Shown here: piece after piece, positions 23,506 through 62,856 of the stretch
Layout of the letters: each line of letters starts with the position of its first letter
Numbering within the stretch: position 1 is the stretch's first letter
Assembly: GCA_973895155.1 (NCBI GenBank)
Contig: OZ316892.1
Location: forward strand, 9,218,283 to 9,282,282
Direction of reading: 5' to 3'
DNA length: 64,000 nucleotides
Source of the DNA: Marsupella aquatica
Lineage: Eukaryota > Plantae > Marchantiophyta
Translations under genes and position numbers: made by a program
The notes under the pieces: model-generated
What the model was told of the DNA's origin: nothing
Seen by the model: only the letters and a program-made list of their open reading frames with translations
The model's database searches: none

Positions 23506-23571
23506 AATCTGTGCAAGTGTAATTGTTCAAATTGAGTCAACTTGTATTTTTCAACTATGGCTTCATATGAG

Positions 23572-27798: not shown

Positions 27799-27837
27799 TG
27801 TTACTCATTGCAAGCTATCTAACTCACAACAACAATC

Positions 27838-40084: not shown

Positions 40085-40919
40085 CTGTAAAAAACAGAGA
40101 TTTCAGTACGCCTTCAAATAACGTACTGAGGTTGTAGCCTAAGGGTTCTACCTCAGAAAACAGAAACAATAACAAATCAATAATAAAATAATTACGTCTA
40201 TAATAGAAACTTTAAGCTTATAGCTTGCAAATGACCTTTGGATTGGGTGGATCCGGCCTTTTCGTAGCTGATCTCTTGGGTGCCTCCTTCGCAACAACAT
40301 CCTTCAGCCCTCCTCGAGACCGCAGTGATCGCTCCACCGGACCAGTTTGCGAAGGTTGGAGCGATGAGGCGGGAAGACCTTCAAATGGTTGTGGCATTTG
40401 ATTCAAATATTCCACAATCTGGGAATCCGATTCCAAAATATCCGGTGCCACGATTCTGTGCGAGTGACCTCTGCAATATATCGGGGTTGAGACCACGAAC
40501 CCGGTCGCGTCAAGTCAGCTATTAGTCTCCTAACGACTTGAGCCGAGTCTGGTGCCAAAGACGTTCCCAGGTCTTGCACTCGATTCTCGGAAAAGTGGAC
40601 ATTATTGATGATTGTCTCCATTCTGGATGTAGTGGCAGTCTTCTCCTCGGTAATCAAAAGACCCTTCCAATATTGCAAAGCAAGGACTACCTGGACTCGG
40701 AGCTGCTCCGGTGAATATTTATTCCAATCATCCAACGAGACCATACTTAAGGGTGGATCGTTAAATTCAGACTCCGGGCGAAGAAAATAGTCTAATATTT
40801 TCTTCTTAACTGCAACTGAGGGTGAAGAAGGCTTCTTCAAATTCAGCTTTATTTTCGATAGACGTTGTGCCTCAGGAATAAGCGAAAGATCCTTGGCCCT
40901 CTCGGCCTCCTTCCTCGCT

Positions 40920-41720
40920 GCCTCCAGTCTTGCGGCTTCTTCTCTCTCCAGTCTTGCGGCTTCTTCTCTCTCCGGTCTTGCGGTCTCGTCCGCCATCCTC
41001 TCGGCCAGCAGCCTCTCAGCCGCCACACTCTCCGCCTTGGCCCTATTTGCCTCTGTCACTAAAAGGACTCTCGCAGCCTCCTCTTTCTCAGCCTGGGCTT
41101 TCTCAGCCTCGGCTTTCTCCACCTCCGCTTTCTCAGCCTGGGCTTTCTCAGCCTCCGCTTTCTCCGCCTCCGCTTTCTCAGCTTCCGCTTCCTTCGCCTC
41201 CACTTTCTCAGCCTGGGCTTTCTCGGCCTCCGCTTCCTCGGCCTCCGCTTTCTCAGCCTGGGCTTTCTCCACCTCCGCTTTCTTAGCCTGGGCTTTCTCA
41301 GCCTCGGCTTTCTCAGCCTCGGCTTTCTCAGCCTCGGCTTTCTCCACCTCGGCTTTCTCCACCTCGGCTTTCTCCTTCTTCTTCGCGGCAGTTGCTTTTC
41401 TAGCTGCCGCCTTTTTCTTCATAGCCTCCTTCTTTTGAAGCTCCTCTTGCCGGGCCGCCTCTTGTCGGGACGCCTCCTCCTGCCGGGCCGCCTCCTTCTT
41501 TTGAAGCTCCTCTTGCCGGGCCTCCTCCTGCCGGGCCTCCTCCTACCGGGCCGCCTCCTCTCTGGCCTGCTCCTGCCGGGCCGCCTCCTTCTTTTGAAGC
41601 TCCTCTTATCGGGCCGCCTCCTGCCGGGCCTCCTCCAGCCGGGCCTCCTCCAGCCGGGCCTCCTCCTACCGGGCCGCTCCTCTCTGGCCTCCTCCTGCCG
41701 GGCCACCTCCTCTCGGTCCA
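40920..41720 (-). repeat. Coding 15-bp tandem repeats (EKAEA and QEEAR pentapeptides), predicted long charged helix
   Basis: On the + strand, GCTTTCTCAGCCTCG/C and CCTCCTCCTGCCGGG units. Confidence 0.9.
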
Positions 41721-44700
41721 CCTCATGTCAAGGCTCTTGTGTGGCCTCTTCATCAGAGTCCTCAGCATCCTCAGAACCCTCCATCTCCTCGTCCTCTTCA
41801 TTAGCGTCTTCAGCGTCCTTCATCTCCTCTCCGTCACTCTCTTCATCTCCTCTATTGTCAGAATCTTCGACGTCGTTCTGCGTATCGGTCATCCACTCTG
41901 GATCTTGGTCATTGACATCCCCATCTGCGTCACCTTCCCCCTCACCATCCGCATCACTATTGCTCCCTGCATCCTCAACATTGAAGCCGCAGTCGACTTG
42001 ATCTTAATAAAATCAGATCATTTGATAAGAATGACTCACGCGCATATTCGCGTGAAAAGAAATATTAAGAATGTCCACGCGCATGTTCGCGTGACGCAAT
42101 AAAAAGTAAGAGGTTTCAAAGTAACCTACCTTGGATTGGCCCACTAGGGTACTCCGTTGGTCGAATGTACAATCGATCGGAATCTTCAGAGAGTGCATAC
42201 TCTTGCAATAATTGATTACAAATATTATCAGGGATATGTTGTTCATGGAGGACATCCAAAACATCAGCCCTGAGAGCAGTTACGGATGGATGGTACTTCA
42301 TTAATTTATCTATACATTTTTCTATACTAGCCCGTACTGGGTCAATCAATGACAGCGTTGTATCAATTGTCGCCGTGGTGTGTTGCAAGAAACAAGACAA
42401 CTCCCTATGCGTTGCCATAGGGCAGTAATATTTTACATTGGATCCAGCATCCTGTAAAAACAACCAAAATTAGTTCACAATATTAATTGAGAATATAATA
42501 ATCTAAATAATCTTAAAATCAAAACCCCAAAATATAAATCTCAAAACTTACCATTAAGCACTGGATCAAGTTCGTTCCCTCACCGAAGCATATAGCCCAT
42601 TCCCCACATTGGACGAATTGACTAACAATACTTTCAAAGAATGGAAGTATCTTTTCTGGGGAAGGTGTCGTGAACTCGCCGCTCTCTTCAAAATTGGCTA
42701 TCTTCTCAATCCAATATTTGGAGACCAATTGGAACTCGAGGGCTTGTGGATCGCCCATTGTGCTGAAGGCCAAGCTGTGAAAAGCGTAGGTTACAATTAG
42801 CTTCTTCTCCTTCGGCCGCTTCTTAATATAATGGCTATCGACAGTAACGTAGTGTGTGTACTTCCCTAATTCCCGTTTGATTAAGTAAGACTCAACTAGA
42901 GAGGCTACAATAATAACCACATGGTGTGGTTTTGCCCCTATCTCGCTAGTAGCACGAAATAACCCCTCATAGAATGAGCAATTTGGCGGACGCAAATCTC
43001 CCATTGATGAGGGATCAAAATAAATCAAGCTCGTAAGGTTCTTGTCTTCACGTATGATACAGTCTGCAAACCCAGCATTTTGTATATCCTACAGGGATCG
43101 TAATTTTGGCCTCTCACCGACCGGCCGCACTAGTTGGTTTCCTTGACTATCAACTGATTTCTGTATTCCTTCCACCAACCTGTAGAATATCGGGTCGATC
43201 TCTTCAACAAATTATCATTACTAATATTTACATTTAAGCACTTCTTCAGATAACCACTCAACGCATCTCTCAACTGCTTTAGCACCATCTTGTCGAGCTT
43301 AAAGCGATCAATCATTCCTTTGACCCGCAATTTCCGCGCTGAATCTGTCAGACTTTTCAGCTCCGTCCGGGTGGATGTATCCCCGTTGAGTTTACTCAAT
43401 AATAAAATCTCAAACTCAACTTTTGTCTTCTTCTTTATACAAAATTGCTCCAAACTCATGCTGGTCGTTGACAACACTGGAGCCTCAGAGGACTTCAATC
43501 CTCGCTTTCCCAGATTTCACTTTGATGCGTCGGTTTTTGAGTATAGACAGTCTTCCACTCAACATATATTCCGCTGCCTTTCGAAGAACCAAGTCTGAGC
43601 ACCCTTGACAAGAATGGAATGTCTTCTTCAGAAGATGATAAGCACATGGATTATCCGCAATTTTGACAGCGTCCCTCTATAAAATTCCGTTGTAAATTAC
43701 AAGCTCTCCTGTCCTTGATAGTTTGTAGACCTCCATCCACTTCTTGAATGTTTCGTCCTCCATTGTAAAGAGAAACAGAGCCAATTCTCCAAATTTCATC
43801 ATTTTGTTCTTCCCCATTTGAGCCCATGGGCAAACAAAACTCATAGCTCTCATAAATACCTGAAAAACAATGGAAACATGACAATTCTAAGATTGACGCG
43901 ACCGTTCGCGTGAGAAAAATTCTAAGCTTGACGCGACCGTTTGCGTGGTAAAAGTTTAAACAATAATGTGATCGAAGAGGGTTATTTATATACCTTCCAA
44001 TTTGGATGACGATAATATGATCCAGGGCGCCCAAATGAGTTCCAGATATTACGACACTGTCGTACAATGGTGAGAAATTGTCCTTCTTCCATTGATGTTT
44101 GATGACAGTGGTTTAGAGCTTTTGATAATCCCATTAAATGAACATTATTGTCGTTGTTGAGCGTTGCCCAAAACATTACAGCTTCTACAGTACCACAAGT
44201 GTCTCGTACAACTTGGCTGACTTTGTCGTCCTCTTTCAGCAATTTGTAGGCCATTATTGTGTGCTGGCCTCCGAGTATCCAAAAATGATTGGTCATAATG
44301 TCCTCCTCCTTTGGTGCCGAATCGTAGGGTGCCCCATTGTAGTCGGGATCTCTGTCGGCCTCCGACTGAACCCACTTCACAGGGACTAAAAAGCAGCATC
44401 GCTTTTTGAACTTTATAGCCGAATGAGAGAGGAGTGAATTTTTTAGCCTATCTGTGTAATCCTGATTCCACTCTCGGCACTTGATGTGGTCTGGTGCAAG
44501 ATGACAACGTGATGTCTCAACAAAAAATGACTTGTTAAATATATTCACAGCACTATATTCTTTGAAGAAAAAATCAAACAGAGCCCCGACATTCGCTGAG
44601 GTAATTACTTTCGGAAGATTCTTCGCCGAGTATACTTCAACCTTGGTCACTGGCGGGGCCTTTCCCAAGCGAAATCCCTGGTTGAAAGGAACTCTCTAGA

Positions 44701-45374
44701 ACTCAAGTACGTCAATAATGTATTGACAAATCAAATCTCCCGTTGATCCCTCTGGATCAGAAGGATATCCCACACTAGTAACCTTTTCCAAGGCATGCCT
44801 TGCACCTAGAAGATCATCGATTATGGGCTGATTGAAGGTTACATATTGCGTTCGATCCAAACAAATGCTTATTTTGTCCTCCTGTTGGTCGTCGCTGACT
44901 AGCAGAACCAATCCCTCTGTACACTCTTTAACTTTCATGTTCTTCTCAAAGAAACACCCAAGAATTTGTGATCTCTCCAAAACTGTAGCTTTATCATTTT
45001 TTGCCACCACAAGATGGACAGCCCCATTGCGAACGACTATTCCAAAATTGGATATCTCAGTCGATTCAAAGAGATGGATACTCTTTGTCTCCGTTGTTCT
45101 CTCGGGGGGTTGACTATCAAAAATTTTAGAAACCACGTGCGATCCAACATAGGTATTTTTGACAGATTTTAACTAAATTTTTAAAAAGAGTAGGAGGCAA
45201 AAGAAGGTATTATAAACTCATGTTTATAGAATATTCTTTAATATATACCCTTTATAAAGTAAAATAGGTTATTAATATTGAAAATAGAGAATATTCTTGG
45301 AATATTTTCTTTATAAAATAGGTCTATTTATATTAGGCTAGGATCGCACGTGGTACCCCAAAATATACACTTAG

Positions 45375-46130
45375 TTAACCCCCCGAGGTTATTCTCTCTC
45401 TGATTGACTTTCCTCGATATGCAAGTATGGATGTCTCCGTGGGAGTCATTTTTGTCTTGGCTTTCTTACGAGAAGCAGCTTTAGACGAGTCTCTTTTCCG
45501 CTTTGAAGTTCTGGTAGGATCCATTCTGAAACAAACAAATATTGAAAGTTAAACGTTTATTATAAAATACTAACACGCGCATGGTCACGTCGTGCCGAAT
45601 TACATTTTAGGAACGTTTATCCTGACCCAATCTTCTCGCTCATCTTCATCTAACCAAAACCAAAGGTTCTTAAACGTGTCAAGTTCAGATCCTTCAAATC
45701 CACCCAGAATGTCCAGTGGCGGGAGAGTTCTGATGGATTCTGTAAATCTGAATGCTACACTTCGTGAAGTCAAATGCCTTCAAAGCGATTCATATCCTAG
45801 TCTATCAGTGAAGTCGTAAGCTACCAAGGTGACCGTCGCCCAAGTACTACTATAAGTAACTATGTGGCACCACTTCTTACTGACTGTTCGAATGGCGATC
45901 AAGTCCATGACCCGATTTTTAATCGCATTATCCGACAAATTCCCAAGACAATGGAAAAACTCTTTGACTAATGGCCAAATATATTTCTCGACAATATCGT
46001 CCGGAAGACCGGGTATCAGGTCTTCAGCTTGACTCCATATCATGTTTCGGTTCATAACCTTTGCACGTGCAATGCGCTCCATCATCATTTGACGATGAGA
46101 TTTTTGATTCATGTCAAAGGACTGCAACAT
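45375..46130 (-). pseudogene. F-box-like repeat/paralog 3 with basic C-terminal exon (intron 45603-45526)
   Basis: LIPGLPDDIVEKYIWP...IRTVSKKWCHIV. After the in-frame TGA at 45780-45782 homology continues (LPPLDILG...LDEDERE). The last exon KRKRDSSKAASRKKAK is NLS-like. Confidence 0.7.
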
Positions 46131-46164
46131 AATATGGAAAAGATTAAGAACAAGAACCTATCAA

Positions 46165-46731
46165 TTAAGAACTAGGACCACCTAGATTCTGAGAAAATCT
46201 TCCAAACCTTTCGATTAGAACATCTCGTTCTTCCTCATCTAAATAGTTATATTTGTTCATAAACAATATGATTTCGTCAGAAGTAGTAGTCCCAAGAACA
46301 GATATTTCTGGAAGCATAGAAATATCCTGTCGAATAACTCGACAGACTGAGTCAAACTCCAACTCGTCAGTTTCGGGGATGTAGTAAAGTGCTTCATTTG
46401 CGTCATCGAAAATCTGGTTTGCTTGTTTGAGGATAGCCCATAACCTTGTATTTGTAACTAAAAAGTTCCACTTCTTGCTACAAGCTCCAAGCCGAATAAG
46501 GTCTCGGACCCTATCGATAACCAAATCGTTATCGGGGTGTTGATATCAATGCAATCCTTCAATTGAAATAAAGTGTTTGTAGAGTATTGGCCAAATGTTT
46601 GAAATGACCAAAACATTTGGTATTCCTCCAATGAGACTAGAGGAGGTTTCATCCAGCGTATCCCATATTATTTTCTATTTCTTTTCATGAGATGAAAGAA
46701 AATCTCGAGCCTCATTCAAAAGTTGGCTCAT
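46165..46731 (-). pseudogene. F-box-like repeat/paralog 2
   Basis: From ATG 46731: LIGGIPNVLVISNIWP...LGACSKKWNFLV...LPEISVLG...LDEEERD, with two in-frame stops (TAG, TGA). Confidence 0.7.
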
Positions 46732-46796
46732 CCTGCTTTTATCATATCACAAAACATTGTTAGAAGACATACGACGCGCTTGGTCACGTAGGTTAA

Positions 46797-47120
46797 CTAG
46801 AATTCCTTAAAAGCGTAGATGTCACCCTCAAGGTATCCAACTTCGTGGCATCTAACTGTAAATTTCCATTTTTCAAGAGGGTGAAGAGCATCGTAAGTCT
46901 TCGTGAAGAGTTCCCTAAGATCTCTGGACATTGACCCCATAAATTTAATTCTTGGGTATTTCTGGAAGAAACTTTGAACTATCGATGAGAGAGACTCATT
47001 TCCGATCGGTTTAGTAGGATTTCCTGGGAAAGCCAAATCTAATAAACTCAACTTGATTACACCCAGAAGATAGGTATTCCCAACAAGGTGGCATCATCTG
47101 CGACACACCAAAGATAGTCC
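46797..47120 (-). pseudogene. C-terminal half of F-box-like paralog 1, split by the transposon
   Basis: GLSLVCRR*CHLVGNTYLLGVIKLSLLDL aligns with IRTVSKKWCHIVTYSSTWATVTLVAYDF of paralog 3, and is in frame with 55471-55244. Confidence 0.8.
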
Positions 47121-47684
47121 TACAAAACAAGAAGCCTTAAATGATGAGTAACAAGCCCATACTTTAGGAACTCTAGCCAAAAAATCAGAAAAACAACGAA
47201 AAAGTCAAAAAAAGTGCAAAAATAGCACCTATTTTAGAGCAAAAATATGGAGCGAACAAAATATGACATAAACTAGCTATGTTTTGACACCTAAAAATGA
47301 CCAAATTCATCTGAAGTTACATTCCACCAATAAATGATCTCAAATACAACACTATTATCTACAATGGTCTCACAATTACACGAGGTGTCTTTTGAAACAA
47401 CAACTAAATCACCTCCAAAAGCCATTGTCATTTAAAAACCAGAAAATAAATTACTACAACTTAACCTGATACACATTATTGTGAAAAGAAGACAAGGAGA
47501 ATAGAAATGACACCATCTAATTGAATTGAAACACAACCCACTAAGATAATATTAAATTACAAATTTCTCAAGAAACTTTAACCATGAATTCATGAATAAG
47601 TGGTAAAGGCATTTTGAAAATTTGTAAATTTTCAACTTATCCATGTTTTTCAATGGTAATGTCACAAACAATAACTACTTTTCA

Positions 47685-50600
47685 TTACTCAGATCCAGAA
47701 GTTCTCAATTCTTGAAACGAAATATCCCTAGATTTATCTCCTAGCGGGGTTCTAGTTGATCCATTCTCTTGTTCTTGCTCTTTCTCTTCTGCCAAAAATT
47801 CAGTCAATCGGATTTTGATTCGATCTACTGTCTTTTTGTACAATGTATCAGATTTTGTCAACATGAAGTTGTAAGCAAAAACAGTCGTTGAAGATAAATC
47901 AAGCTCTTGGTGAAACCATATTGGTTTCAAAGTTCCTTTCCCACGACCACTTTTCTTCTTTTCGTAGTTTAAGACTTCTGGTAAGTACTTGGCTTTCCAA
48001 GGATCTGACCCGGTTTTTGGAGCATGCCATAAAACATAAATCATTTTTGGAATGTTGAACTCGTCGCGCTGGTCAATTCTTTCCACCTTGGCCACCCAAA
48101 ATGTTTCCGATTCTTCTCCAGCAATAGAAATATAAGTGTTGACTTCAAGATCCGAAAAGTCTCCTTCCATATTCTCCTTCTCTGCATCTATCTTTCCTTG
48201 ATTCCGATAAGGACCCACGTATATATCTCTGGTAGGTCCGTATACTCTCTCTTCAATTTCCTCTTCATTGACAAGGACTCTGGGAACTTCAGCAGCAACA
48301 GCAATCTCCCTTTGGGAGCGTGGCCATTGAAAAGGGAAAATCAATGGTCTTTGATCAAGGAGCAAAGATTTATTCAATTCCCGTTGCTCTTCAAAAAACA
48401 TTCTCCACCAGTTCACTTCCTCTTCTGAGAATAAAGTTTCAACTGCAAGTATTCCCTTTTGAATCTCATTTAACGAATCATCCATCTCCTTCAAAGTCAT
48501 TCTTGAAGAACTAGACATATTTGGTTGAGTCCTTGTAACGTTCTTATCCCCCTTTTTGAAAAGGGGTAATCCGGGAGCACAACCCATCACCTTTTCTGGC
48601 TCCTCTTCCCTCAAAAATTTCACGCCTCCGTCAGGTTTCCAAGTTGAGTCCGTGGAAAACTTCTTCCCCCATTGGGTTGGAACTTGATTTTCCAACTTGT
48701 CAAATGCAAATTTGTACTGGTGGTGGAAGGTAACATTTCGAATCCTTTCAATGACTAAAGGTGGATCTGAGAAGGCATATTGACGGAAATCATATGTTTC
48801 CTTTAAAAGAGTGATATTTGGTTGGGGTTGATATGATTCACAAATAATATCACATAGGCTTTCGTATGTGAATGCCTTAAACCTTGCTAGTCGTTTAGAA
48901 AATCGACTGAACATTTGATCTATTTGGTCGTGTGTGTGTCCAACCAACAAGAATCCTAGTTTGATTTTCCGAAAAACCTTTCTTCGAATCAACATATGAA
49001 GATAGGCAAAGAGTAAATTATTTTTATTTTCTCTACTGGTATTATCAAGTTGAAGATAGAGAACAGGCGGCAAGCCACCAGGCTTTTCTTCCCATTCGTG
49101 AAACACCCTTTGCAGGATTGTGACTGTCAAGTTTCCATCATTATGCAATACAGGATAATTAAGAAACACTCTTGAAAATAGTGCACCATTGAAAACCAGG
49201 CATCCGACAACGTGCATTTGGATCAAACATGTTTTGTCCACCGATTTTGGGGGCCGCGGCCAATGAGGCAACCTTGTCTTCTTCTGATCCATCCCATCAA
49301 TGACAACTCCCAAATATTTATCAGAATTTGAAAAACATTTCTTACGATGCTTCGCGAGTTTCTCACGTTCTTTGGATTGTTGGTCTCTATGTTTTTGTAA
49401 CATAATTTCCCCTCGCCCTGGAAAAACAACTTGTTAGTTTCTTCAAAAAAAATTAGAAATCATGTGTTAAGCCATATTCTTGAAACAAAAACTTGTCAAA
49501 CTTGTAAGCAACTTACTCTTTTCGGTCTCCGAGACAGCTTTGTCCCAAATTGATTTGAACTCCTCGCAATCCGCGCAAGCACTGAATCGATTGACTGGAG
49601 GAATCTTCACATGACCAAATTCTTGAACCCAAACTTTCAAGAATTGTCGATAGGATATTTTTGAAGATTCATCAATCTTGGCATAGTTGGAGTCGTAGAT
49701 CTTCCATACCTCCAGCTTTGAATAATTATCCGGTAAATGTGAAACTTCTTTATTTGGCAATGTTTCCACGCGTGTCTCAAAAAATGACCTAAGCCAACTG
49801 ACCAAGACTAATCTTTTAACAGATGGAGGGCGTCCAACTGGTTTAGAATATCCTAAGTCTTGGTTGTCTAATTTCAAAATTCTATTTAATCTATGATTGC
49901 CAACGCAAAATATAAGCTTGAAAGCTTTCCGACAAATACTCTTTTGACCAAACGTGTAAGATATAGTCTGCCTCCCTCCTTCATTTCCATCTCGCTTTAT
50001 AAGCCACTGCAAAGATAAAGATCGATCCTGAGATTTCTGCCTCAAAAATTTAGAACGCGCCTCACGAATTTCTTTTGGAGATAGACTTAGGAGACAATGA
50101 CTCTGACAACAGTACTTACTATTTGTTTTCTTGATATCCTCCTCTTTCAACTTTGTTTCACACAAAGTGGCATTGCTCGTACGTTTGTAACGACTAGATG
50201 CCACCGGAACATCATCATCCTCCCCACTCTCCGAAGACTCGCTTTCATTCGATGATGAAATGGTCACCAACATTTGCTTTTGAACATGCCTAGATTCCAG
50301 ACCTGCAGCCTTCGGAGATGGAGGCTCTTCCTTCACTCTATGCACCCTTGGAATACCTGGGCGTATTTCAGAAATCCCTCCATTACCGTGTAGGGACCCT
50401 TTCAATATTTTCCTAGGGTCCCTCTCCACCAGGTTGGTTTCCCTGTTTGAGTTTCCGTGACTTGATCCGCTCCCTGCCCCAACACCATGACTCCTAGGTA
50501 AAACTGAGGAACGCACATTAGAATTCTTTTCTGGAATACTTTTCAATAACACTGGTCGTCTAGTTTCTTCCCTCATCCCCCTGTGAAATGTTTCCGACGT

Positions 50601-50945
50601 TGGCTTACCAAAGGTTTTACTTTTTGGCATTTGCTTCAGCCGCTGAACACTTTGCAGACTGCAAAAATCTCTGTCATTTTCCCCACTTAGTGCCTTCTTC
50701 GTCTTTCCAAATCCAGTCTTCATGAATTCATGAGACCGTTTCCCAGACATCCAAATAGGCATTGAACCTTCCAGATTACTCCCCAATTTGTCCTTTGTTG
50801 GTGACAAAGGAGATACAACTTGACGTCCAGGGGGACCAATACTCTCCAAGGAGTCAGAGGAGCTCCCTGACCTCTCTTTACCACCGACCAATGATTTCTT
50901 CCCACTAATTGCAAGTCGTAAAGGACTACGTTTTAACTTGCTCAT
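47685..50945 (-). CDS. DDE/D-type transposase, DUF7869/Sola-like; exons 50945-49517 and 49417-47685 (1053 aa)
   Basis: Cys cluster CCQSHC...ICRKAF and FSACADC, then VIDGMDQ, LQLDNTSRENKN and FLLVGHTHDQIDQMFS. Phase-1 GT-AG intron at 49516-49418. Located between the TIRs. Confidence 0.85.
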
Positions 50946-51631
50946 AGGGGTGGGGGTGGCATATCTAAAACAGTAGTTATTCCAGGGATATCTGGGCCAA
51001 CCATTGTGCAGGGGCCATCCGGCAATGAAACATCATCAGAAACTCCATCTGAATAATCATCTGATTCGTAACACGCCGCCATTGGAAAAACTAGTGCAAA
51101 TTGACAAGAAACTCAGAAAATCAGTAAAATCTAACAAATGTTCTCAAAATAATGACCAAGAGTCATGAATAAACGAGCCTATTTATAGTTTTTCACGGAT
51201 TGTTGGGACTTTTTAACTTCAAAAATATCAAATATTCATGAAATTTGCAAGCTTTTTCCCGTTAATACCCCGAAATATTCATGAATAATTGGCCCAAAAA
51301 CATTGATTTATCATGATTCTGGGTTAATTTTACTAAGTCACGCCTGATCCGTGATTAGTATGTATAACCAAGGAACACGGGCCAGCCCATTCATTTTCAC
51401 TCAATGTCATTTGGATTTCCTTTGTAAAAGAGTGAAAAACAATCTCGATATCCAATTTCGTGCCATTTTCAGCACTCATCGGCGACGTGTCGCGAGTTGT
51501 CGCGGTCGCACTTCATTTCGACCCTATTTTAGGTAGTAATTTAGGCCCTGGGTGATTTCTTCATGTCACCCCCCTCCGAACCCTATTTTAAATACCCTTC
51601 TGCATCACCGAGGTGTACAAGCAAAGAGAGA

Positions 51632-51696
51632 GGAGACTCCCTTCATGAATTCATGAAGGTCGGAGCGAGAGGGAGACTCCCTTCATGAATTCATGA
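51632..51696. promoter_or_regulatory. Direct repeat (period 40) of a palindrome in the divergent promoter region
   Basis: GGAGACTCCCTTCATGAATTCATGA occurs twice. Perfect 20-bp palindrome CCTTCATGAATTCATGAAGG at 51640-51659. A regulatory role is inferred only. Confidence 0.55.
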
Positions 51697-51861
51697 TAGG
51701 AGTCCTGGGGTGGCCGAGAGCGTTGTTAGATCCGTAAGGACACGGTTTTAGTAGCCATTTGTTGGCACATTCCTTGGTTCTGTGGCACTTTGTCTCGCAG
51801 GTTGGGGTTGAAGTGGACTGATTTTGTGGTATGTTCTCAGGTTTGAAGATCAGGCAAAAAC

Positions 51862-54800
51862 ATGACAATGTCGCAGGAAGAGCTGGTGGATGACATCTTT
51901 TCGCGCCATCCTTTGACGGACTTCCACAACTCATCCTGGACGATTTCCTTAGGGATGGAAACATGGAAGAAGCCCTTCCTAATGCTGTGTGTATTTGAGG
52001 GGCTTCCATCGGGGGCATTAGGGTGGGTAAATTACGGCCGCATCGATGTATTTCGACGGGGCGACGAAGTTGTGAACATGTTGATCACAACGAAGGAAAC
52101 ATTAACTTTGATTGTCGTGGATGTGGAGAGGTTTTCTGGAACGGCTGCCACCTGCTATCTCGATGAGGACATCGATAGCATCATTGAGACTGTCAAGTCT
52201 CTTTCGAGTGAGGAACGTTACCACGACGTCGCGGGAAAGATTTCCGGTTTTGTGTTTGAATTTCACGCTAGCACTTTAAAGAGTGCAATCCGAAAATCAA
52301 GAGAGATTCTCTGGAAAAGGTCGGCAGAGAAGGGAGTAAGTCGTCCACCCAAATCTGGGGCTTCCGGTGTTCCTTCTGGATCGAGGCCTAGCATTTTACC
52401 CGATGATATTTTGACCGTGGTAGCGCCTACAACCTCCCGGGAAGCAGCAGCATCTGGAGGGGGATCTCAAGTTGGCAGATCATCCCAGGGAACGGCTTTG
52501 ATTGGTGGGTCGGCACAAGGTACGACTGGAACTCGCATTTCTTCAAAGAAGCGACCTGCTATGACTCCTGAGCCTACCGAGCCCAGTGCTACAAAGTCAA
52601 AAACGAAGACTTTGGAGAAAATTCCAACGCATTTGGAGCAAAAGGCTCAATCAATGTCAATGGATGCACGGGTATTGTACCAGGAGGAGATTCTGGGAAG
52701 ATGTGGTGTTCAAGAGGAGACCGTGACCGTTGACATTGGTCAACTTTACCCTCCAGTGAGAGAGAAGGCTGTGGGCTTGCCCATTTACCAGGTCCGACAC
52801 ATCCAACCATATTTCTTGACCCAATTGACCTTGCGGATGAAGAATGTAGGTGCCAGTCCACTTGCAGCTCCGTTTGTCCTCTTGGTGGATCCGAAGGAGT
52901 GTGCTACTAGGCAAGACTTTGATTTTTCAAGGAAAGCTGATTACCATTATTATGTGATTGGGGGCAACCATTCAGCCTGTGCCAAAGCAGACCTTGCTCT
53001 TCAGTTCCCTAACAACAAGGCATTTCGGAGAGTGCAATCTTGGATATTTGCGGGATTGAGTGTGCAAGAGGCAAGAAACCTTGCGTGGAGTCACAATATT
53101 GATTCTGAATTTCGACAACAGATGACGACAATCCAGAGAGTAAATTATATTCACATGAGATTTGTTGAGAATGGATTGTCGTCCAACCAGGATTTCAAGA
53201 AAGAGTGTGCTACTGAAATCAATCTCAAGGATTGGGGTGTACGAAAGGATGCTGAGGTTCTTAATGCCAATGATAACCTATTTCAGTTGGCATTCCGACA
53301 AGATCCTGTGTGGTCATTTGTGAGGCAGATTTGTGACAAGTGGGAGATGTGTGAGATCAAAGGTCAAAAAGGAGACAAAGGCAAGAAGAAAGTCTCTAAG
53401 TCTGGAGATGCCAAATTGCCTTATGAGGACATGAAATTAACAGAGTGGAGACACATGCAGGCCTTGAAAGATCCTGATATGATTTGCCCAGTGTTACAGA
53501 GAGTTCTTACTAAAGAACTCTCTTTACAGGAAATGGGTCATGAATTTACTCGACACAAATTTCAGATGCAGGTGCAGAAGGCCTTCCTCACGTGTCTACA
53601 CGAGGAGAGTTGGTCAGGTTGTAAAACCAAGTACCCTGAGCATTGCACAGACAATGTGCTTAAGAATTTTGTACCTGTTTTCCAGACATGGGTAAGATTC
53701 TGTCACCTTTCTTCGAATGATTGTTTGAATTCATTTAATATTTGGAATCCTTGTTTCTAATTCTACAGTTCCTTTTTGTAGAAAGATACCACCTCCCGGA
53801 AAAAGAAGGGAGATGAGGAAGGCAAAGATCTCAAGTCATTCCCGGACAAATTCAATGCGCATATTGTGCAAGCCCAAAATTGGCTATCCATGAAGACTTC
53901 TAGTCGGCAAACCCAAGAGGGGGAACTTCATCCAAATTCGTTTGAGCATCCAGAGTTTGGTGATGTGCACTATGATATTTTTACTCATGATGCTCAGCGA
54001 TTACATGAGGTGGTTCCGGGTCGGGCTTACACATTAGCTTTAGTGGATATTCCCTACGGGTTTGCATTGCCTGGATGTCTTCATGAAGACACTATTGGAT
54101 GGGGAACTGAGGAGATCACAAAAATGGTCCAATCGTTCAAGGTGGCTACTACTGCAAAGTTGTGGCGTATTATCATTCACCACAGCCTTGACCAATATGA
54201 GGCCATCAAGACCGTTTTGAAAGCGGAGTGTAATGGAGGGTTCCAGAATTGTGTGTGGTAAGAAATATTTGTTTTTGAAAAAAACAACTATTAGTTATTC
54301 ATGATTTCATGAACCATGTTTCTCAGTTTAAATAACTCCTTGACTTTTTGTGACTTTTCAGGGTTAAGGATAATGTGAAGAATGCTGGTGGACCAAGATT
54401 GAACAGCAACTTTGAGTGCTTTACAATTGGCTTTCACAGCCAGGATGGTAAACGGTCATTGGAGCACTTCAATTTTGACACAAATGAATCAAGGAACAAT
54501 GTGGTTGTATGCGCAGCTGTGACTAAGAAGCTGAAACACAACGGGGATAACAAGGCAGTGAATGTTTATCAGAAACCACGTGCATTGTTAGATTGGGAAG
54601 TGAGTCATTTTAGTCAGGTTGGAGACTGGGTTTTGGATATTTGTTCAGGATCAGGGACTGGGACAACCTCCTCCTTGGCCATGGGGAGACATTGCGTTGC
54701 CATTGAGATTGACGAGCGACAGAGCAGTGTGTTGAAAGGGAGGATTCTTAACCTTGTAGATAACATTGAAGAGGAAGACGGACAGGGGGAGATGGATGAG

Positions 54801-54923
54801 GAGAGTGAGGAAGACATTCCTCAGGCCGGAGAGGATAGCGTGGTTGACGATGCCACAATTGTTCCAGAATTGACGACAGGGACTTCCGGAACCGAGGAAG
54901 GGGAAGCGGTCCCTTTGGATTAG
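51862..54923 (+). CDS. ParB-like domain fused to a beta-class N6A/N4C DNA methyltransferase; exons 51862-53691, 53782-54257 and 54362-54923 (955 aa)
   Basis: ParB-like QVR..., YYVIGGNHSACA and LAWSHN. MTase motif IV LALVDIPYG (54046-54057), WVKDN created by splicing, YQKPRALL, motif I VLDICSGSGTG and GRHCVAIEID. Acidic tail. No stops. Confidence 0.88.
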
Positions 54924-55243
54924 ACTAGATAAATAGAGGGACTCGTAGCATTTGAAACCACTTGGGCTTAAGTTGGGTTATATTTTGTAAAACTTTGAGT
55001 TTGACTTAAACTCTGATCGATGAGTTTGATTTTGATTACTTTTATAAAGTGCATATTTCAAGGTTTATACAATTGTGAGAATATCATATAAGATATGCTT
55101 AGATTTTGGTGGTAAAATTCTCTTGAGTCTAGTTTGGAAAATACATACCATTTTTTGGTGGTTTTTTGGTATACACTTTTTAATATCATGAAGATTTTGA
55201 AAAGAGAAATAAGGCTTTGGACTCATCCCTTAAGGCTTCTTGT

Positions 55244-55471
55244 TACAAACTCATCCAATTCTTTTATTGAGAAATTTCCTGCATTAGCCGAGGAATTAAA
55301 AGACTCCTTGATCCGAGGCCATATCAATTCCGCGACAATAAAATCTGGAAGTCCAGGTAGTAGTGTTTCAACAAATACCGAATATCCCGCCAGTAGACCA
55401 TCTTGGCTTCTATCCAAAACGTCAAATATTAGGCATAGATATCTGAAGCTCTCTAGACCAGGTTCGCCCAT
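55244..55471 (-). pseudogene. N-terminal half of F-box-like paralog 1
   Basis: LLPGLPDFIVAELIWPRIKESF...ELDEFV, cut exactly at the transposon terminus. Confidence 0.8.
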
Positions 55472-55512
55472 GACTTTTTTCAGCCAAATGATATATCCCA
55501 AAGATTATTTTC

Positions 55513-56710
55513 ACGCGACTGGTCGCGTCTACAAATCAGAATGTATAAACAATTCTTTGAGACTGTGATTTTTTTGGGTCACAACGTGACAAATCATAAA
55601 TGTTGCTTCGTCCTCTAACAGAACCAGTCAATGAGAGAGCTACCTCAGACGCGATTGGTTGCGTTACCTAATCCTAAATGGAACGGTACCTCCTCTAACA
55701 AAACCAGTCAATGAGAGATCTACCTCAGACGCGACTGGTCGCGTCAACTGATCCTAAATGAAACCTTACCTCCTCTAACAGAACCAGTCAATGAGAGATC
55801 TACCTCAGACGCGACTAGTCGCGTCAACTGGTCCTAAAATGAACCTTACCTCCTCTAACAAAACCAGTCAATGAGAGAGCTACCTCAGACATGACTGGTC
55901 GCGTCAACTGAACCTAAACAACTATATCCACTAAACCTTCCTTGTGGAGATTTGGATATGGTACGCGCTCAATAAATCTATCCAGTTTCCTTCTCACACG
56001 CGACTGGTCGCGTCAACTGGTCCTAAAAGGAACCTTACCTCCTCTAACAGAACCAGTCAATGAGAGAGCTACATCAGACACGACTGGTCGCGTCAACTGA
56101 ACCTAAACAACTATATCCACTGAACCTTCCTTGTGGAGATTTGGATATGGTACGCGCTTAGTAAATCTATCCAGTTTCCTTCTCACACGCGACTCGTCAC
56201 ATCAACTGGTCCTAAAAGGAACCTTACCTCCTCTAACAAAACCAGTCAATGAGAGAGCTACCTCAGACGCGACTGGTCGCGTCAACTGAACCTAAACAAC
56301 TATATCCACTGAACCTTCCTTGTGGAGATTTGGATATGGTACGCGCTCAGTAAATCTATCCAGTTTCCTTCTCACACGCGACTGGTCGCGTCAACTGGTC
56401 CTAAAAGGAACCTTACCTCCTCTAACAAAACCAGTCAATGAGAGAGCTACCTCAGACGCGACTGGTCGCGTCAACTGAACCTAAACAACTATATCCACTG
56501 AACCTTCCTTGTGGAGATTTGGATATGGTACGCGCTCAATAAATCTATCTAGTTTCCTTCTCACACGCGACTGGTTGCGTCAACTGGTCCTAAAATGAAC
56601 CTTACCTCCTCTAACAAAACCGGTCAATGAGAGAGCTACCTAAGACGCGACTGGTCGCGTCAACTGATCCTAAATGGAACCTCACAATCTTTTCACGCGA
56701 CTGGTCGCGT
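55513..56710. repeat. Tandem array of 80-bp units and 189-bp (109+80) higher-order units, with 14 copies of the ACGCGACTGGTCGCGT palindrome
   Basis: Palindrome copies start at 55513, 55649, 55729, 55809, 55889, 55998, 56078, 56187, 56267, 56376, 56456, 56565, 56645 and 56695. Confidence 0.95.
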
Positions 56711-58021
56711 CAACAGCTCAAACAACTTTTGGATAATAGGATAATACAGTGATACAGTGATACAACTGTGATTACTGACCCGTACGGACAAGGAAATCCG
56801 AGTAAGCATGATTTCATTCATTTGTATTCATTCATGAACTTTACAATAATTCAGATGTTTGAGCTCTGTCATTGTGAAACTATTATATATCAGAAGTTTA
56901 GAGAATGATCCAGCTAAGATGATTCAATTTAGCAGTCTACTAGTTATATTCGTCAATTAAAGGATTCAGTGTAATGAGATTCACATAACATGAGAGTTTA
57001 TATGATTAAATTCACAGCGTGCAAGTTTGTAATGACTTACTTAAGACGATTCAGGTTGTATTTTAATTAGTGAGTTTGTATGATTCAGACATATTTGAGT
57101 TTACAAACAAACCGCATTATGAAAACTCAGCTCAACAATCAAGAGAAATTTTAGCAAACAACAATCAACACCAACAGAAAATGTAGAAATTGCACCTGAA
57201 TTCTGAAAAATTGATGTAATCGTCTGAGAGATTGACATCCAAGCACTTGAAGACCTTGCTGCGGCATTCCAGAAAGTAAATATAAGATTGAAGATATTAA
57301 TATGCTAAGCAACAACAACACAACTTCTATACTTCTATACATAAAGCTTCGCTGCCACCAATTGAATAACATGTGCTTAATGCTAAGGAACTCATTATGT
57401 CGAGTTAAAAAGACTCTTTCAGAAGTACAATCACTAGTAGAAAACAATGTATTTTATGACGGAAACAATGACTATTAATCAGGTCTTTTTAACAAAACAA
57501 TGACGCAATCGTTCTTGTCTTTCCAGACGCGTCACAACGGACATTTTGGTCACGGTCCTTTTGGACAAATGACGCTAAAAACATGTGGTCATTTCATACT
57601 ATCCTAAATGACGGTTTTTATGATATGGTCATAAATGCTGAACGGTCCAAAATGACGACACAAATCACCATCGATGGTCAATTGCCGTTGACCGTCGACG
57701 GTCCCCGTACCCAATCACACAATGACACGTGGCCATCAAAAAGCAAATAACATTGGTCATTTTGGACTTGTCCAAAATGATGTACATTATATAACAAATC
57801 AAATAGTGACACATGGTTCAAAGAGGATTCACCATTTGGCAATATATTTGGGTCATTTTGGACGTGTCCAAAATGACTACGATATAAACAAGTCATATTA
57901 AGACACGTGGTTCAATTAGGAGGAGACACATAAAGATACACATTAGTCATTAATGACATGTCTTGAATGACATAAAATGAGTCATAGTGGACTTGTTTAT
58001 AATGACCATGAGACATATACA

Positions 58022-59764
58022 ATGACCCGGAGGTCCCATCGGTGGTCTTGGTCCCGGTCGATTAAATGAGGATGATCCTGCTGTTTTTTGCTGAGTCCAT
58101 GCAGTTGGTCCTGCAGCTGGAGGGAAGTATTGCCCTGCGAATGGTGCCTGGACTGCATAGATATCTCCATAATCTATCAACTCTTCCTCCTCTCCATAAT
58201 TGACAGCTCGTTGTAATGTGGGGCACTCGTGGTGGTAGTGTCCTTGATTATTGCAGCGTGTGCACCAAACATTATTTCGAATGGCAGGTGGCAATTTTCT
58301 AGTTGGTTTATAGATGGCCGCATTCACCGAGAGTTTGTTTAACTTACTAGTCAAGGAATCCATCATTTTATCCAAGGTTTTAGCCTTCTGGGGTACCGAG
58401 CTTTTCTGCATCCTTTTTGGCTTAGAGTCCACATTGTCAGAACTTGAACTGCTACTTGAACTGCTACTGGAGCTTGAGTCAGAACTTATTCCCTCAGTAC
58501 TGGTGGTATCACTATCATCAGACTCTGAGCTTGATGAAGACTTCGTCTTTTTCTTTTTCTCTTTCTTTTTGCCCTTTTTCAAGTCCTTCTTGACTCGTTT
58601 CTTCTTAGAGACTTCAGAGTCCACATATTTTTGGGCTGCTTCCTGTGCCTCTTCAAAAGTTGTACCACCTTCCCTTCTCACATATCTTGCAATTCGGGAG
58701 GGAAGTCCGTTGATAAACCAATCTCTCGTGGTAGATTTAGCTGTATTGGGATTGTATTTGTCCACCAGGTCCAATAATTTATCTGCATACTTCCTGACTG
58801 ATCCATGCTTCTTCATGGTGAGTTGAGAAATTCTGGCAAAGGCTCTTGCCTCAACACCATCCTCCTTATACTTGTCCAGAAAGCCGATCTTCGTTTTTCC
58901 CCAATCATTCTTGTCTGGGAATCGATCATACCATTTTTGGGCGTTTTTCTTCAACAAGCCTCCGAAAATTGTGGCTTTTTCAGCATCTTGGGTTTGCCCA
59001 TTTGAGGTGGCTGCAGCTTCAAATTCCTTCAAAAAGGTTTCAGCATCCTCCTTGGATGTTCCCTTAAAGGTATCATAGCGAATATTGTTTCGAGCCATTT
59101 GAGTTCTCCTTACAGGAACCGGGATTAAATTGATTGGAGGAGTGGCCCTCAAAGATTGTGAACTAATGCTGGTGACTGATCCTTGAGACGTCAATGGTGA
59201 AATTGAATTTAAGGAATTGGGAGTGCTTATCGTGCTAAGGCTGCTGCTAGCACTTCCATAACCAAGCGAGGGAGGTATCTCTGTAAATTTTGCAGATTCT
59301 CCAATGGGCGTTCTCTGAAGTGAAGGTGAGTCAGAATTAAATTTTAAAGATTCAATTTGCTGAATTCCTCCTCCAATTATACTTTCATGCCTTGTATTGG
59401 TAATCTTTTCTGTTCCTATTATCTGCAATGCAAGTGTACCCTCATATTCATCCAAGCTTTGCGTTCTTCTTAACGGTTAGACAATGTCAACTCCTTTCTT
59501 ACTAGGCTTGGGTGGAATGTATTGCACATCTCTGGAGCGTAATTTATAAATTACAGGTCGACTTGTTGTTGGATTCTGTACTGTTCCCTCTGTTTCACTT
59601 TGCTGGATCAGGGTGACTCGCTCTGCTACACTTCCAGGTGTCGGATAATCCGGTGATTGGAAATCCGGCAGTAATTCTCTCGGGTTAAGTGGGTCTTGAG
59701 AGGCTTCTGCTTTTGCTTTTTCTTCTCGTTTTGTTCTCCAACCTCGTTTCCCTTTATCAGACAT
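58022..59764 (-). pseudogene. Ty3/gypsy gag, one in-frame TAA (59477-59479), truncated near 58021
   Basis: Retrotrans_gag-like FKGTSKEDAETFLKEFE, AQKWYD and WFINGLP, plus zinc knuckle CTRCNNQGHYHHEC. The 59477-59797 and 57950-59455 ORFs are one frame. No pol in the window. Confidence 0.88.
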
Positions 59765-60510
59765 CCCACATTCTGAAAATCGACACTCTTCTGGCACGAG
59801 TTTATGGTGTCGGGTTGACCCTTAGTCTTTCTTGAACCGTCTCCCCTAGCAGGAACAATCGCGTCCCTTGGTATCGTGCCTTTTCCGTTGGGGTCTTATG
59901 GGCGGTATGTCCAAACAGTCAGAAGACTCAGTCGCAGGTCGAAGTGACGCAACCTCGACTCGTAACTCCTCAACCTCAAAAACGTCAACCCGTCAACTCG
60001 TAAACACGTAAAGTCGTAGGGACGTAAAGGCGTAAAGGCATAACCGTAAAGTCGTAACTCCGTAGAGTCATAAACCCGTAACGTTTGACCTATAATGGTG
60101 TCTCCTCATATTACGGTGGTGCCCCTTGGAAAGTGTCTCTCCCCTGATTGGTTTACAACCAACTTTGGCTCGTCCTTCCTTATCCGAGTCTTCTATTTTG
60201 ATTTTGCAATATTATTCTAACTAATTCTTGTATGGAGATAATGATATACTCTCCAATAATTCTACCATTCAACTTCAAAATAACCAAATGCAAAACTCCT
60301 CCTTACCACCAGGCAATACTTAACCAATGAACACCCCTCCTTCCTCTTAGTGACAGTACCCATGTTTGAACATACCGATTATGCAAATTCCTTACTCTCA
60401 AAGTGCCTAAAGACCTGATAGGAGGCATTTCAATTATTTCACCAAATTGCTTATTCAAAGTTGGAATCAAAGTTTTAATTTGGGGGAATACCCTCTTCTG
60501 TTGTCCTCTT

Positions 60511-61371
60511 TTATGCTGAGATCCGGTAGTTATTCAACAAATTTTCTAGAGTGTCCAGGGCATCCACCCAAGGGTGTTCAACAATGTGTAATTTTTCCAG
60601 CACCTCCTTGATTCTCAGCTCTTCTTCTCTAGTAACCCAGTTACTAATTTGACCATTCTTGCTTATTAAAAATTCTAAATCATGTTCTTCCTTAATGGGC
60701 TGCAACTTATATTCCTCATCATCGATCCAAACTCTCTTAAAGACTATTACATCAGTCAATTTAGAACATTGAGGGAGGGTGGAGGTCCATTTAAAGGATG
60801 CCCTTTCTGTACTTAAATCCCTCCATTTTAACAAAGCCCATCCACTTCTGGCCTGCCATTTACAAGTGTCAACCAGCTCCCTTCTATTGGAGGTCATAAC
60901 CGGTCTTTCCTCCCGAAGTATTAAATTGGGATTATCTTGATAAAACTCCGTTAAAACATAATCAAGTTGGTTCCTCCATAAGGGATCCCCTTTTAATCTT
61001 GCCAATGCTCTCTTTAATTGATACTCAAGTTCCTCCTCCAATATTTCCTCCTTAATGTCATGTTCTTTTAGTAATGGGGGAATAAAATTGGCATCAAATT
61101 CATCATCTTGAGTGGCTTCAATCAGTTCCAGTCTTCCATCTATGGCTCTTCTGAAAATAAACACACAATCATACAGAATATTGGTGTCCCATGAGTCAAC
61201 CTTCACCAATTCGCCACCCCAAAAGTAACTTCCTCCTCTTTGGTTGGACGCTTGCCTTCTCAAAATAGTTGTTCTATCTCGTGCAGTGGCACTGATAATC
61301 GTGTGGGTTTGATTATCCCTAGACCTAATTAAGGCTCTTTCTCTTTTCTGAGGTCTGCTTTTCCTCACCAT
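60511..61371 (-). CDS. Extra ORF of unknown function between the PBS and gag (286 aa)
   Basis: Open ATG-initiated ORF, co-oriented with gag, 290 bp downstream of the PBS. Confidence 0.6.
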   Translation of the reverse strand: MVRKSRPQKRERALIRSRDNQTHTIISATARDRTTILRRQASNQRGGSYFWGGELVKVDSWDTNILYDCVFIFRRAIDGRLELIEATQDDEFDANFIPPLLKEHDIKEEILEEELEYQLKRALARLKGDPLWRNQLDYVLTEFYQDNPNLILREERPVMTSNRRELVDTCKWQARSGWALLKWRDLSTERASFKWTSTLPQCSKLTDVIVFKRVWIDDEEYKLQPIKEEHDLEFLISKNGQISNWVTREEELRIKEVLEKLHIVEHPWVDALDTLENLLNNYRISA

Positions 61372-61662
61372 CTCTTGCTTGGAAAGGATATTCCCCTACT
61401 AAGCACCACTTAATCTTTCCTTCTTGGCCTTAGCTCTCCTCTTTCTTTCCAAAATTGTGGCAGGATTTTCTCCTCCAACTCTCTCTCTAAATGCCTCTGG
61501 TGCATTTTCCACCGTATAAGGTCGAATTTCTAACCTTGGAATTGCCCATTCTCCAATAGGTTCCATAGTGGCAATCACCCTTATTTTTATTCCATCACTT
61601 TTACTGAATTAAAACCTTCTTTTGGCATTCACTGCCTGTACTTCAAACCTTCCTTGATTTGT

Positions 61663-61680
61663 TCCCCGGCAGCGGCGCCA
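61663..61680 (-). promoter_or_regulatory. Primer binding site, tRNA-Asp type (Athila-like)
   Basis: The minus strand reads TGGCGCCGCTGCCGGGGA, one mismatch from the Athila-type PBS TGGCGCCGTTGCCGGGGA. Confidence 0.88.
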
Positions 61681-62856
61681 AAAATCTCATGTAGTTTGCT
61701 ATGAAGAACCAAAAACACACTTAAAGGTCTTCAAACTCGGTATTCGTTCCCATAAGGAACAAGATGGGGTTGGTTTGATAGATTTAAACAATAATAAAGA
61801 ACTAAAAATGTTTTTCACACATAGTAATCAAGTTTGATTACTTTAATAAGGTATTTTGAAGATCGCTCCACAGCGGTGAGTAATTTTCAATGATAACTCA
61901 GCATCAGGTAACCATAAATTAATGAAAAGGAAATGATTAACAAAACACAAGGAAAAATATCTTAAAGTATGCTAAGGGAGTTTGGAATAGACCAAGGTTA
62001 CTCCTTAGACATAAGTCAAAATGAAAAGACTTAAGGATTCAAATCCACGTTTGCTTTTCAGATCTAAAATGCTTACTAGAGTACCTTTTAAAATGCCGTA
62101 AACATGTCTTATCCTTTCTTTCTAAGTGGTACTCAGTTAAAATCTAAAAGGTAGCTACTTCAACATTTAGATGGTACTAAGCAACATGAAAGAAAATCCA
62201 TCAATTTCAAATAAGACTTAAACTCAGTGAGTTAACTTCAAGAACTCAAGAGATTGCAATGAATCACCAAAAAGGAATCTATCATTACAACTCAAAAGAT
62301 TTGCACAAAAGGAATTTTACTTCCTGTGTTTATAATCATAGGTAAAAACACAAGAAGGAGGTAAGTCTCTCCAAATGTTAAACCTGATCTCGAACTCATA
62401 GATTCATGATCAACTAGTTTAACACAAGGAAAAGGCAAAAATGCATAACTTAACCATAAACTACACTAGTGGTGGAGGGGTCTTATAGTAAAAACCTACA
62501 GGGTAAGAGGTCATAGGGTCGAAGAGACATGCCTCTTCATACTCCTCAAAAAGTCAAAACAGTGATTCAGTAAGTGAAAAGCCGAGAAATGGCTAAGTAA
62601 GAACCCGTAAAAGCGTAAAAGCGTAAAGACGTAAACTCGTAAAAGCATAAAAACGTAAAGGCGTAATCCGGTAAATGCGGTAGACTTAAAGACTTACCAA
62701 ATTCAACTATTTTTAACTTTCTACTCCTGGCTCGGAAAATTCTGAAATTTTGCCAGTGAGTTTCTCTACGTATAGACTATGTACTAAAGGAGTTTCATAG
62801 CTTTTAAAGCTCTAGAACACATTTTGAAAAATAGGGAAAGATGCACTACTCTTAAA

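Follow-up and report, generated by a model that had tools for sequence, protein, structure and literature searches.

A 64,000-nucleotide stretch of DNA from the liverwort Marsupella aquatica (GenBank assembly GCA_973895155.1, contig OZ316892.1, positions 9,218,283 to 9,282,282 of the forward strand), referred to here as the window, carries an 8,119-bp element that has the hallmarks of a Sola1-like cut-and-paste transposon. Two divergent genes lie head to head within the element, a transposase gene on the minus strand and an accessory gene on the plus strand. The accessory gene encodes a predicted fusion of a ParB/Noc-fold region with a beta-class DNA amino-methyltransferase, and the full palindrome TCATG-N4-CATGA occurs four times in the element and nowhere in the 55.9 kb outside it. 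We propose that the accessory protein of this transposon family binds the element's own palindromes, writes N6-methyladenine (6mA) on the element and keeps its promoters usable against silencing, a reading that as a whole has roughly an even chance of being correct.

In this scheme, the ParB/Noc-fold half would bind the palindromes as a dimer, the methyltransferase half would place 6mA on element DNA, and the mark would keep the two back-to-back promoters usable despite silencing by the host. Binding of the palindrome by the predicted ParB half is probable. The odds that the methyltransferase is functional and deposits 6mA on element DNA appear balanced, while a mark that favours expression of the element against 5-methylcytosine (5mC) is a tentative suggestion. 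What we infer in this scheme is that a dimer binds the palindrome, that the protein is catalytically active, that adenine is its target and in which direction expression would be affected. More broadly, an old and still mobile class of land-plant transposons might write its own mark, with a ParB-fold reader directing an adenine methyltransferase to a promoter palindrome and 6mA hindering 5mC silencing, although this wider reading is put forward with reserve.

The accessory protein

The spliced accessory gene model encodes 955 amino acids from an ATG at 51862 and has introns at 53692-53781 and 54258-54361. Homologues support the first intron, in that 11 of 13 stop at the same Trp-Val point (P0008 and P0013 end earlier). 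An annotated protein of Calypogeia fissa joins the same exons, and the introns are shared by two related loci found in metagenomes, L001 and L002.

A preliminary description of this DNA had recognized a ParB-like/methyltransferase fusion with the motif order of beta-class enzymes, and both profile and fold searches bear this out. Exon 3 matches PF01555 with 35.3 bits (cut-off, 26.7), and motif IV (DIPY) precedes motif I (DICSGSGT), which is the beta-class arrangement. A 36-sequence profile of the family gave its best matches to CcrM (E = 4.9e-20), 8urk, DpnA, RsrI and MboIIA, which ranked above the N4-methylcytosine (4mC) enzymes 8s9n (8.9e-9) and PvuII (5.9e-8). The methyltransferase assignment is one of profiles and not of structure, as a single-sequence model of the Calypogeia methyltransferase had a predicted local distance difference test score (pLDDT) of 34.7. 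Motif conservation was counted over 44 near-complete methyltransferase domains among 161 proteins examined. The Asp of motif IV is retained in 42 of these domains, the second Pro in 40 and the Tyr in 36; the Q-K-P residues are retained in 42, 41 and 39, respectively, and the Gly of motif I in 43, and motif II is also kept.

An SPPY-type motif is absent from every family protein collected, including the 150 that were listed of 410 matches to a Calypogeia protein query. Because the family has D-x-P-Y without SPPY and its best solved relatives are adenine enzymes, 6mA seems a likelier product than 4mC. The preliminary description had instead drawn a link to the 4mC writers DN4MT1 of Marchantia and N4CMT of rotifers, and had suggested that such an element was the route by which plants acquired DN4MT1. 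A 4mC writer that is kin or vehicle of DN4MT1 would be in keeping with the range of PF01555, which spans both marks, with the scores of 4mC enzymes against the family profile and with the report of 4mC writers in a liverwort. However, motif IV is described as SPPY in both DN4MT1 (the liverwort 4mC writer) and N4CMT, whereas no family protein has SPPY and Asp stands at the first position in 42 of the 44 domains. A 4mC product is therefore improbable, and the acquisition route, for which the motif comparison with DN4MT1 failed, is unsupported. The accessory protein does share PF01555 and the placement of motif IV before motif I with CcrM, DpnA, RsrI, MboIIA, DN4MT1 and N4CMT. It differs from these enzymes in having DIPY in place of DPPY or SPPY, a fused ParB fold, a transposon-borne gene with introns and no chromodomain match.

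A model of residues ~250-610 reached a pLDDT of 86.8. Foldseek placed ParB and Noc at the top of the matches to this region (E = 1.3e-5, ~280 columns), and structure alignment (VIA-align) gave a Z score of 9.8 for the ParB-like protein PadC (root-mean-square deviation [rmsd] 3.1, 98 aligned) and 8.2 for the repressor KorB (rmsd 13.5). The accessory protein is predicted on this basis to possess a ParB/Srx fold, whereas Pfam and PHROGs searches returned no match for the ParB region. As a separate lead, Atlas features of the ParB region (52600-53691) suggest a possible link to the fungal family DUF3723 (0.96), a Starship accessory gene.

The fusion could also bind its palindrome without methylating it and act as a regulator of transcription or chromatin, the methyltransferase fold having been kept for binding of a base or S-adenosylmethionine or for structure. 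DIPY is non-canonical and its second position is variable, motif residues have been lost in some family members (DIPS, DLPR, SVQY), and inactive adenine-methyltransferase domains are reported to be retained in DIRS1 elements (Iyer 2016, PMC4738411). Set against this, this copy and most relatives keep Asp and Tyr in motif IV as well as QKP, the glycines of motif I and the acidic residue of motif II, and the two residues used in the mechanism described by the same source (the first of the motif and the aromatic one) are intact. A protein that binds without methylating is rather unlikely.

Palindromes and the proposed mode of action

The preliminary description had overlooked the TCATG-N4-CATGA palindromes. 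L001 has three full copies and L002 has four, and in none of 1000 shuffles each were the counts of the element, L001 or L002 reached. Non-coding DNA of the element (1,952 bases) holds 12 copies of the hexamer TCATGA against an expectation of 0.87, a count attained in 0 of 1000 simulations, and this hexamer ranks first among the 64 palindromic hexamers. The first palindrome of the pair that precedes the accessory gene is a perfect 18-mer, CTTCATG-AATT-CATGAAG, and matching pairs, with spacings of 42 bp in L001 and 40 bp in L002, stand before the accessory gene. Spacers vary (AATT, ATTT, ATAT, CTAG) while the half-sites are constant, and the remaining non-coding DNA scarcely aligns among the three elements. 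Such a pattern is what would be expected where a DNA-binding protein docks as a dimer.

Several observations weigh against self-protection by 6mA at these sites. The canonical arginine patch of ParB proteins that bind cytidine triphosphate (CTP) is GxxRxxA. The loop of the accessory protein, GGNHSACA, has none of the arginines found in the CTP pocket of bacterial proteins, and His replaces Arg family-wide in the alignment; since these arginines are missing, clamp-like spreading of the protein is doubtful. The helical region, a candidate helix-turn-helix domain, aligns with the DNA-binding domains of KorB, ParB and SopB at Z scores of 3.5-4.5, a weak match when taken by itself. The methyltransferase half departs from the canonical [DNSH]PP[YFW] in having DIPY, and across the 44 domains the first Pro is present in 7 and replaced in 37; a literature search gave no publication combining DIPY, DPPY and methyltransferase. 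The position of the palindromes downstream of TATA-like boxes is as compatible with repression as with activation. Finally, the observed/expected ratio of CpG is 0.61 in the element and 0.64 and 0.62 in the flanks, which gives no sign of protection from 5mC.

An active adenine methyltransferase might alternatively restrain or time the element, either by repressing its promoters or by using hemimethylation to couple transposition to DNA replication, in the manner of Dam and IS10. The location of sites immediately downstream of the TATA-like boxes of both genes would suit such a role, as would the presence of the repressor KorB among the structural neighbours of the accessory protein and the reported use by rotifer N4CMT of an amino-methyl mark to silence transposons. 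The terminal repeats, however, contain no full palindrome (a mismatched copy lies at 47582 and a single hexamer at 55186), and the family seems to have been amplified recently together with the accessory gene. Self-restraint is considered unlikely.

The element, its transposase and its family

Features of the element are listed in the table. The preliminary description had placed a bounded element of 8.1 kb at 47127..55243. The terminal inverted repeats and the duplicated target stand, but each end lies one base further out, at 47126 and 55244, and the duplication is the 4-bp ACAA. The inverted ends are 32 nt each and 84% complementary, with the first 15 nt perfect and AAC...GTT termini, and a 14-nt end motif has two perfect matches in the window, one exactly at each end of the element. 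Local sequence alone fits either of two duplications: TACAAA (6 bp), with the element ending at 47127 and 55243, or ACAA (4 bp), with ends at 47126 and 55244. Among contigs from public sequencing runs (X1 to X5) that cover other insertion sites, 17 contigs from four runs in two studies diverge from the reference at 55244-55246, and departure at 55243 was seen in 0 of the 23 contig matches listed (of 38) at the right end. The element thus includes the terminal T, which leaves a 4-bp duplication, a boundary set from right-end joins of other insertions and not from both flanks of a second insertion; on the basis of these joins the 6-bp duplication is rejected. Collapsed high-depth contigs (568 in X1 and 2205 in X3) terminate precisely at 55244.

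Table. Features of the Marsupella element and its target (window coordinates)
Feature	Position	Strand	Basis
Left target-site duplication, ACAA, 4 bp	47122..47125	+	offset test and right-end joins at other insertion sites
Left terminal inverted repeat, opens AACAAG	47126..47157	+	repeat search, alignment
Transposase exon 2, DUF7869 core with Asp517, Asp601 and Asp643 (1053-aa numbering)	47685..49417	-	Pfam, homologue alignment
Transposase intron, GTAAGT...CAG, 99 nt (putative)	49418..49516	-	best among several GT-AG options
Transposase exon 1; family ATG 51082 (MAACYE), in-frame ATG 50945; CxxC at residues 457-460	49517..51082	-	run contigs, L002
Palindrome in the 5' part of the transposase coding sequence; L002 has one as well	50720..50733	.	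motif search
TATA-like box (TATAAAT at 51187), then TCATGA, before transposase; L002 alike	51163..51187	-	motif search
Two palindromes 40 bp apart upstream of methyltransferase ATG	51641..51698	.	motif search, alignment
Accessory exon 1: N-terminal region, low-complexity linker, ParB/Noc-fold region from ~52618 with GGNHS	51862..53691	+	homologues, predicted fold
Accessory exon 2: methyltransferase motif IV, DIPY at nt 54046	53782..54257	+	homologues, annotated Calypogeia protein
Palindrome inside intron 2 (54258-54361); intron 2 of L001 and L002 has one too	54299..54312	.	motif search, alignment
Accessory exon 3: YQKP, motif I DICSGSGT (nt 54636), acidic motif II, acidic tail; PF01555	54362..54923	+	Pfam, family profile
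Right terminal inverted repeat, closes CTTGTT	55213..55244	-	repeat search, alignment, other insertion sites
Right target-site duplication, ACAA	55245..55248	+	offset test, other insertion sites
Interrupted target, F-box-like reading frame	46797..55504 (leftwards from 47125, rightwards from 55249)	-	open once element removed

The copy in the window was recently inserted, and the family is mobile. The empty target (joint 47120-55244) was found in three of four runs compared (X1, X2 and X5) and was not listed in X3. A point against this line of evidence is that the target site itself has a depth of 492 in X1. The target is probably a repeat, and at such a depth the empty forms may be paralogues and not alleles. 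Removal of the element leaves an F-box-like frame that continues across the junction except for one stop codon close by, the frame being so labelled because it resembles adjacent frames that have weak Pfam hits. In X2 a joint from 47120 to 55248 with four other letters was considered as an excision footprint and rejected in favour of a variant of the target repeat, which is likelier given that X1 and X4 contain the same four letters. Record 30 of X4 (window 55221-55297) has the last 24 right-end bases and the same flank with a different interior, which hints at a related element in the same target, one side being too short for a bridge.

The DUF7869/Sola-like transposase of the preliminary description is confirmed by a match of exon 2 to DUF7869 (E = 2.7e-51). 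Three aspartates, all intact in this copy, are conserved in homologues (Asp517 in 85 of 89, Asp601 in 100 of 101 and Asp643 in 101 of 102) and would form a DDD catalytic triad. Sola transposons are defined by a 4-bp duplication, a DDD triad and a length of 2-9 kb (PMC10741241). With its 4-bp duplication, 32-nt inverted repeats, size of 8,119 bp and DDD aspartates, the element is assigned to the Sola1-like cut-and-paste transposons. Transposase homologues listed number 108, of which 47 are from Riccia sorocarpa and others from a fern, animals and Ectocarpus; one DUF7869 protein of Ectocarpus, which need not be that of the published element Sola1-1_Ec32 (see below), shares 36% identity over 137 amino acids.

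Both genes had initially been taken as intact. The divergent arrangement and the splice models of 955 and 1053 amino acids hold, but the transposase gene is one base short relative to other copies. An extra G follows position 50951 in runs X1, X2 and X5, and L002 opens with MAACYE, the same start as that of ATG 51082, which is out of frame in the window copy. Either the window copy has a frameshift of one base, or the assembly slipped within a run of G. In both cases the 1053-residue product from ATG 50945 keeps the entire conserved core.

Thirty accessory homologues were looked up, and the 14 with an organism name came from Chara (6), Adiantum (4), Riccia (3) and Ginkgo (1), with no prokaryote among these 14. 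By sequence similarity, these homologues show the accessory family to be widespread in the green lineage, in Chara, liverworts, a fern and Ginkgo. A tblastn search of phages and an exact-peptide-pattern scan of bacterial genomes (0 of 43 candidates) found no close prokaryotic relative, although both searches are weak and uninformative on the donor.

Three Riccia homologues were looked up, and for two of them a DUF7869 gene is no more than two locus tags away (R1sor_010796/010795 and R1sor_020633/020635). Of the two metagenome loci found, L002, at 56% identity, shows the beginning of a transposase gene in head-to-head orientation to the accessory gene, while the upstream part of L001 is too short to judge. 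Long contigs of X1 have depths of 563 and 484 over the transposase gene and 540, 574, 577 and 621 over the accessory gene, with 0-6 differences each, and end-plus-flank contigs have depths of 22-33. Since depth is even over both genes and ~20 times that of the end-plus-flank contigs, X1 suggests ~20 near-identical young copies carrying both genes, with the proviso that contig depth is no copy number and that the low-depth ends come from slightly different subfamilies. The longest contigs of P0001 and P0018, relatives of the two genes, are each 8,829 bases and of the same source type, and are possibly one whole element.

The ratio of nonsynonymous to synonymous substitution rates (dN/dS) of the accessory gene against two relatives is 0.06-0.16 in eight of nine exon pairs, far below neutral, and undefined by saturation in the other, although dS close to saturation makes the ratios rough and lessens their weight. 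These values indicate that the accessory gene is under purifying selection. The gene is also a family-wide companion of the transposase, found across copies, in L002 and in Riccia, in line with the preliminary description, which had treated the two genes as belonging together. Of the outcomes by which that description would have been refuted, those open to computation did not occur: a match to the expected domain was obtained, the gene recurs in copies and relatives, and dN/dS is well under 1. Alternatively, the gene might be a passenger captured once, or a host gene in decay, that does nothing for the element, a view favoured by the one-base break in the window copy's transposase gene and by the fact that linkage to a transposase is documented in L002 and Riccia but not in the Chara, fern and Ginkgo homologues. 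The even depth over both genes, the head-to-head layout in L002, the adjacency in Riccia, the low dN/dS, the conserved palindromes and the same design in Ectocarpus (PMC12477816) all speak against a passenger, which is already largely refuted and very improbable.

Related systems and neighbouring features

The closest published design is that of Sola1-1_Ec32 of the brown-algal genus Ectocarpus, described as an element of 21.5 kb with AACCG-CGGTT ends, 282-bp imperfect repeats and two intact copies that is closest to moss Sola1 (PMC12477816). Likeness between the two was judged from the published description and not by direct sequence comparison. Both are of the Sola1 type and have a 4-bp duplication and AAC...GTT ends, and in both a ParB-like region and an N4C/N6A methyltransferase are joined in one protein (1104 amino acids in Sola1-1_Ec32) encoded on the strand opposite the transposase. 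The 4-bp duplication of Sola1-1_Ec32 is reported to be biased to end in A (PMC12477816), as does the ACAA of the Marsupella element. Unlike the algal element, the Marsupella element is from a land plant, is 8.1 kb long, has 32-bp repeats and shows signs of many near-identical copies. It also has a defined conserved palindrome, whereas the available text on Sola1-1_Ec32 does not name a binding site (PMC12477816).

Self-binding and self-modification have been proposed for the algal elements (PMC12477816), and the proposal is directly testable in the Marsupella element, which is compact and has an intact accessory gene and a base-defined candidate site conserved in three elements. Related cargo occurs in the red-algal Plavaka elements, cut-and-paste transposons that are reported to carry a PF01555 methylase and a ParB-like protein in their accessory genes PAG2 and PAG3 and whose inverted repeats were proposed as self-binding sites (bioRxiv 10.1101/2025.02.11.637652). 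The Plavaka elements differ in having an EnSpm-type transposase, a length of 17-19 kb and fusions of methylase with SET and of ParB with a 2-oxoglutarate oxygenase that reside in separate genes.

No land-plant example is described in the literature searched, a search that stopped short of Repbase entries, Iyer 2011, Bao 2009 and the algal sequence supplements. The preliminary description was not aware of a described plant family of transposons with terminal inverted repeats and such an architecture; this holds for land plants in the literature searched, but its novelty was overstated, given the Ectocarpus element and the red-algal cargo. The architecture is not categorically new, and the Marsupella element is best seen as a land-plant member of a barely described kind. 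Chlorophytes are reported to have adenine methyltransferases fused to ParB and helix-turn-helix regions, and land plants are said to have few such enzymes (Iyer 2016, PMC4738411).

A tested precedent for motif-guided self-protection is VANC of the Arabidopsis VANDAL transposons, an accessory protein that finds its element through a short motif concentrated in the non-coding DNA of that element and induces loss of 5mC (PMC5735166). The Marsupella element likewise has its own motif enriched in its non-coding DNA. VANDAL belongs to the Mutator family and its motif is non-palindromic, in contrast to the DUF7869 transposase and 4-bp duplication of the Marsupella element, and no likeness to VANC surfaced in Pfam or fold searches of the accessory protein. 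Fungal DNA transposons of many superfamilies carry TET/JBP genes, with Sola unmentioned in the main text of that report (PMC12730594). These too have DNA-modifying cargo, although it oxidizes 5mC instead of adding a methyl group. If the proposed self-protection is correct, the accessory protein would be the first case in which a DNA methyl writer encoded by a transposon is demonstrated to counter silencing, and a programmable source of 6mA in plants, and an active enzyme would bear on the origin of 6mA in plant DNA and on the resistance of transposons to 5mC silencing.

Other features of the window include a second cargo-rich unit on the minus strand at 36660-45172, likely another transposon with a disarmed version of the cargo, whose ends and transposase were not found. 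At 43985-44695 it contains a distant ParB-like frame with a GGQH motif (E = 1.2e-4 and probability 55% in an hhalign comparison with the family), and at 42522-43088 a frame faintly like the methyltransferase but without its motifs (probability 2%). The same unit encodes a Ulp1 protease (E = 2e-20) and a protein with acidic/alanine repeats, and three of its frames resemble NIF phosphatases. Three consecutive F-box-like frames, two with weak Pfam hits, occupy the minus strand at 45780-47125 and 55249-55504; the Marsupella element interrupts the third, and their high run depth suggests that they are repeat cargo. Tandem arrays of 80 and 189 bp with the repeated palindrome GACGCGACTGGTCGCGTC lie at 55508-56720 and could be the self-site or the subterminal array of the neighbouring element. 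Very long interrupted inverted repeats (~18100-20900 against 27500-30930) mark a foldback-like non-coding element at 18000-31000. The region 57950-62700 contains a Gypsy-like gag frame as well as a unit at 59962-62682 that has 8-bp subterminal repeats on both sides of one frame that matches no known family.

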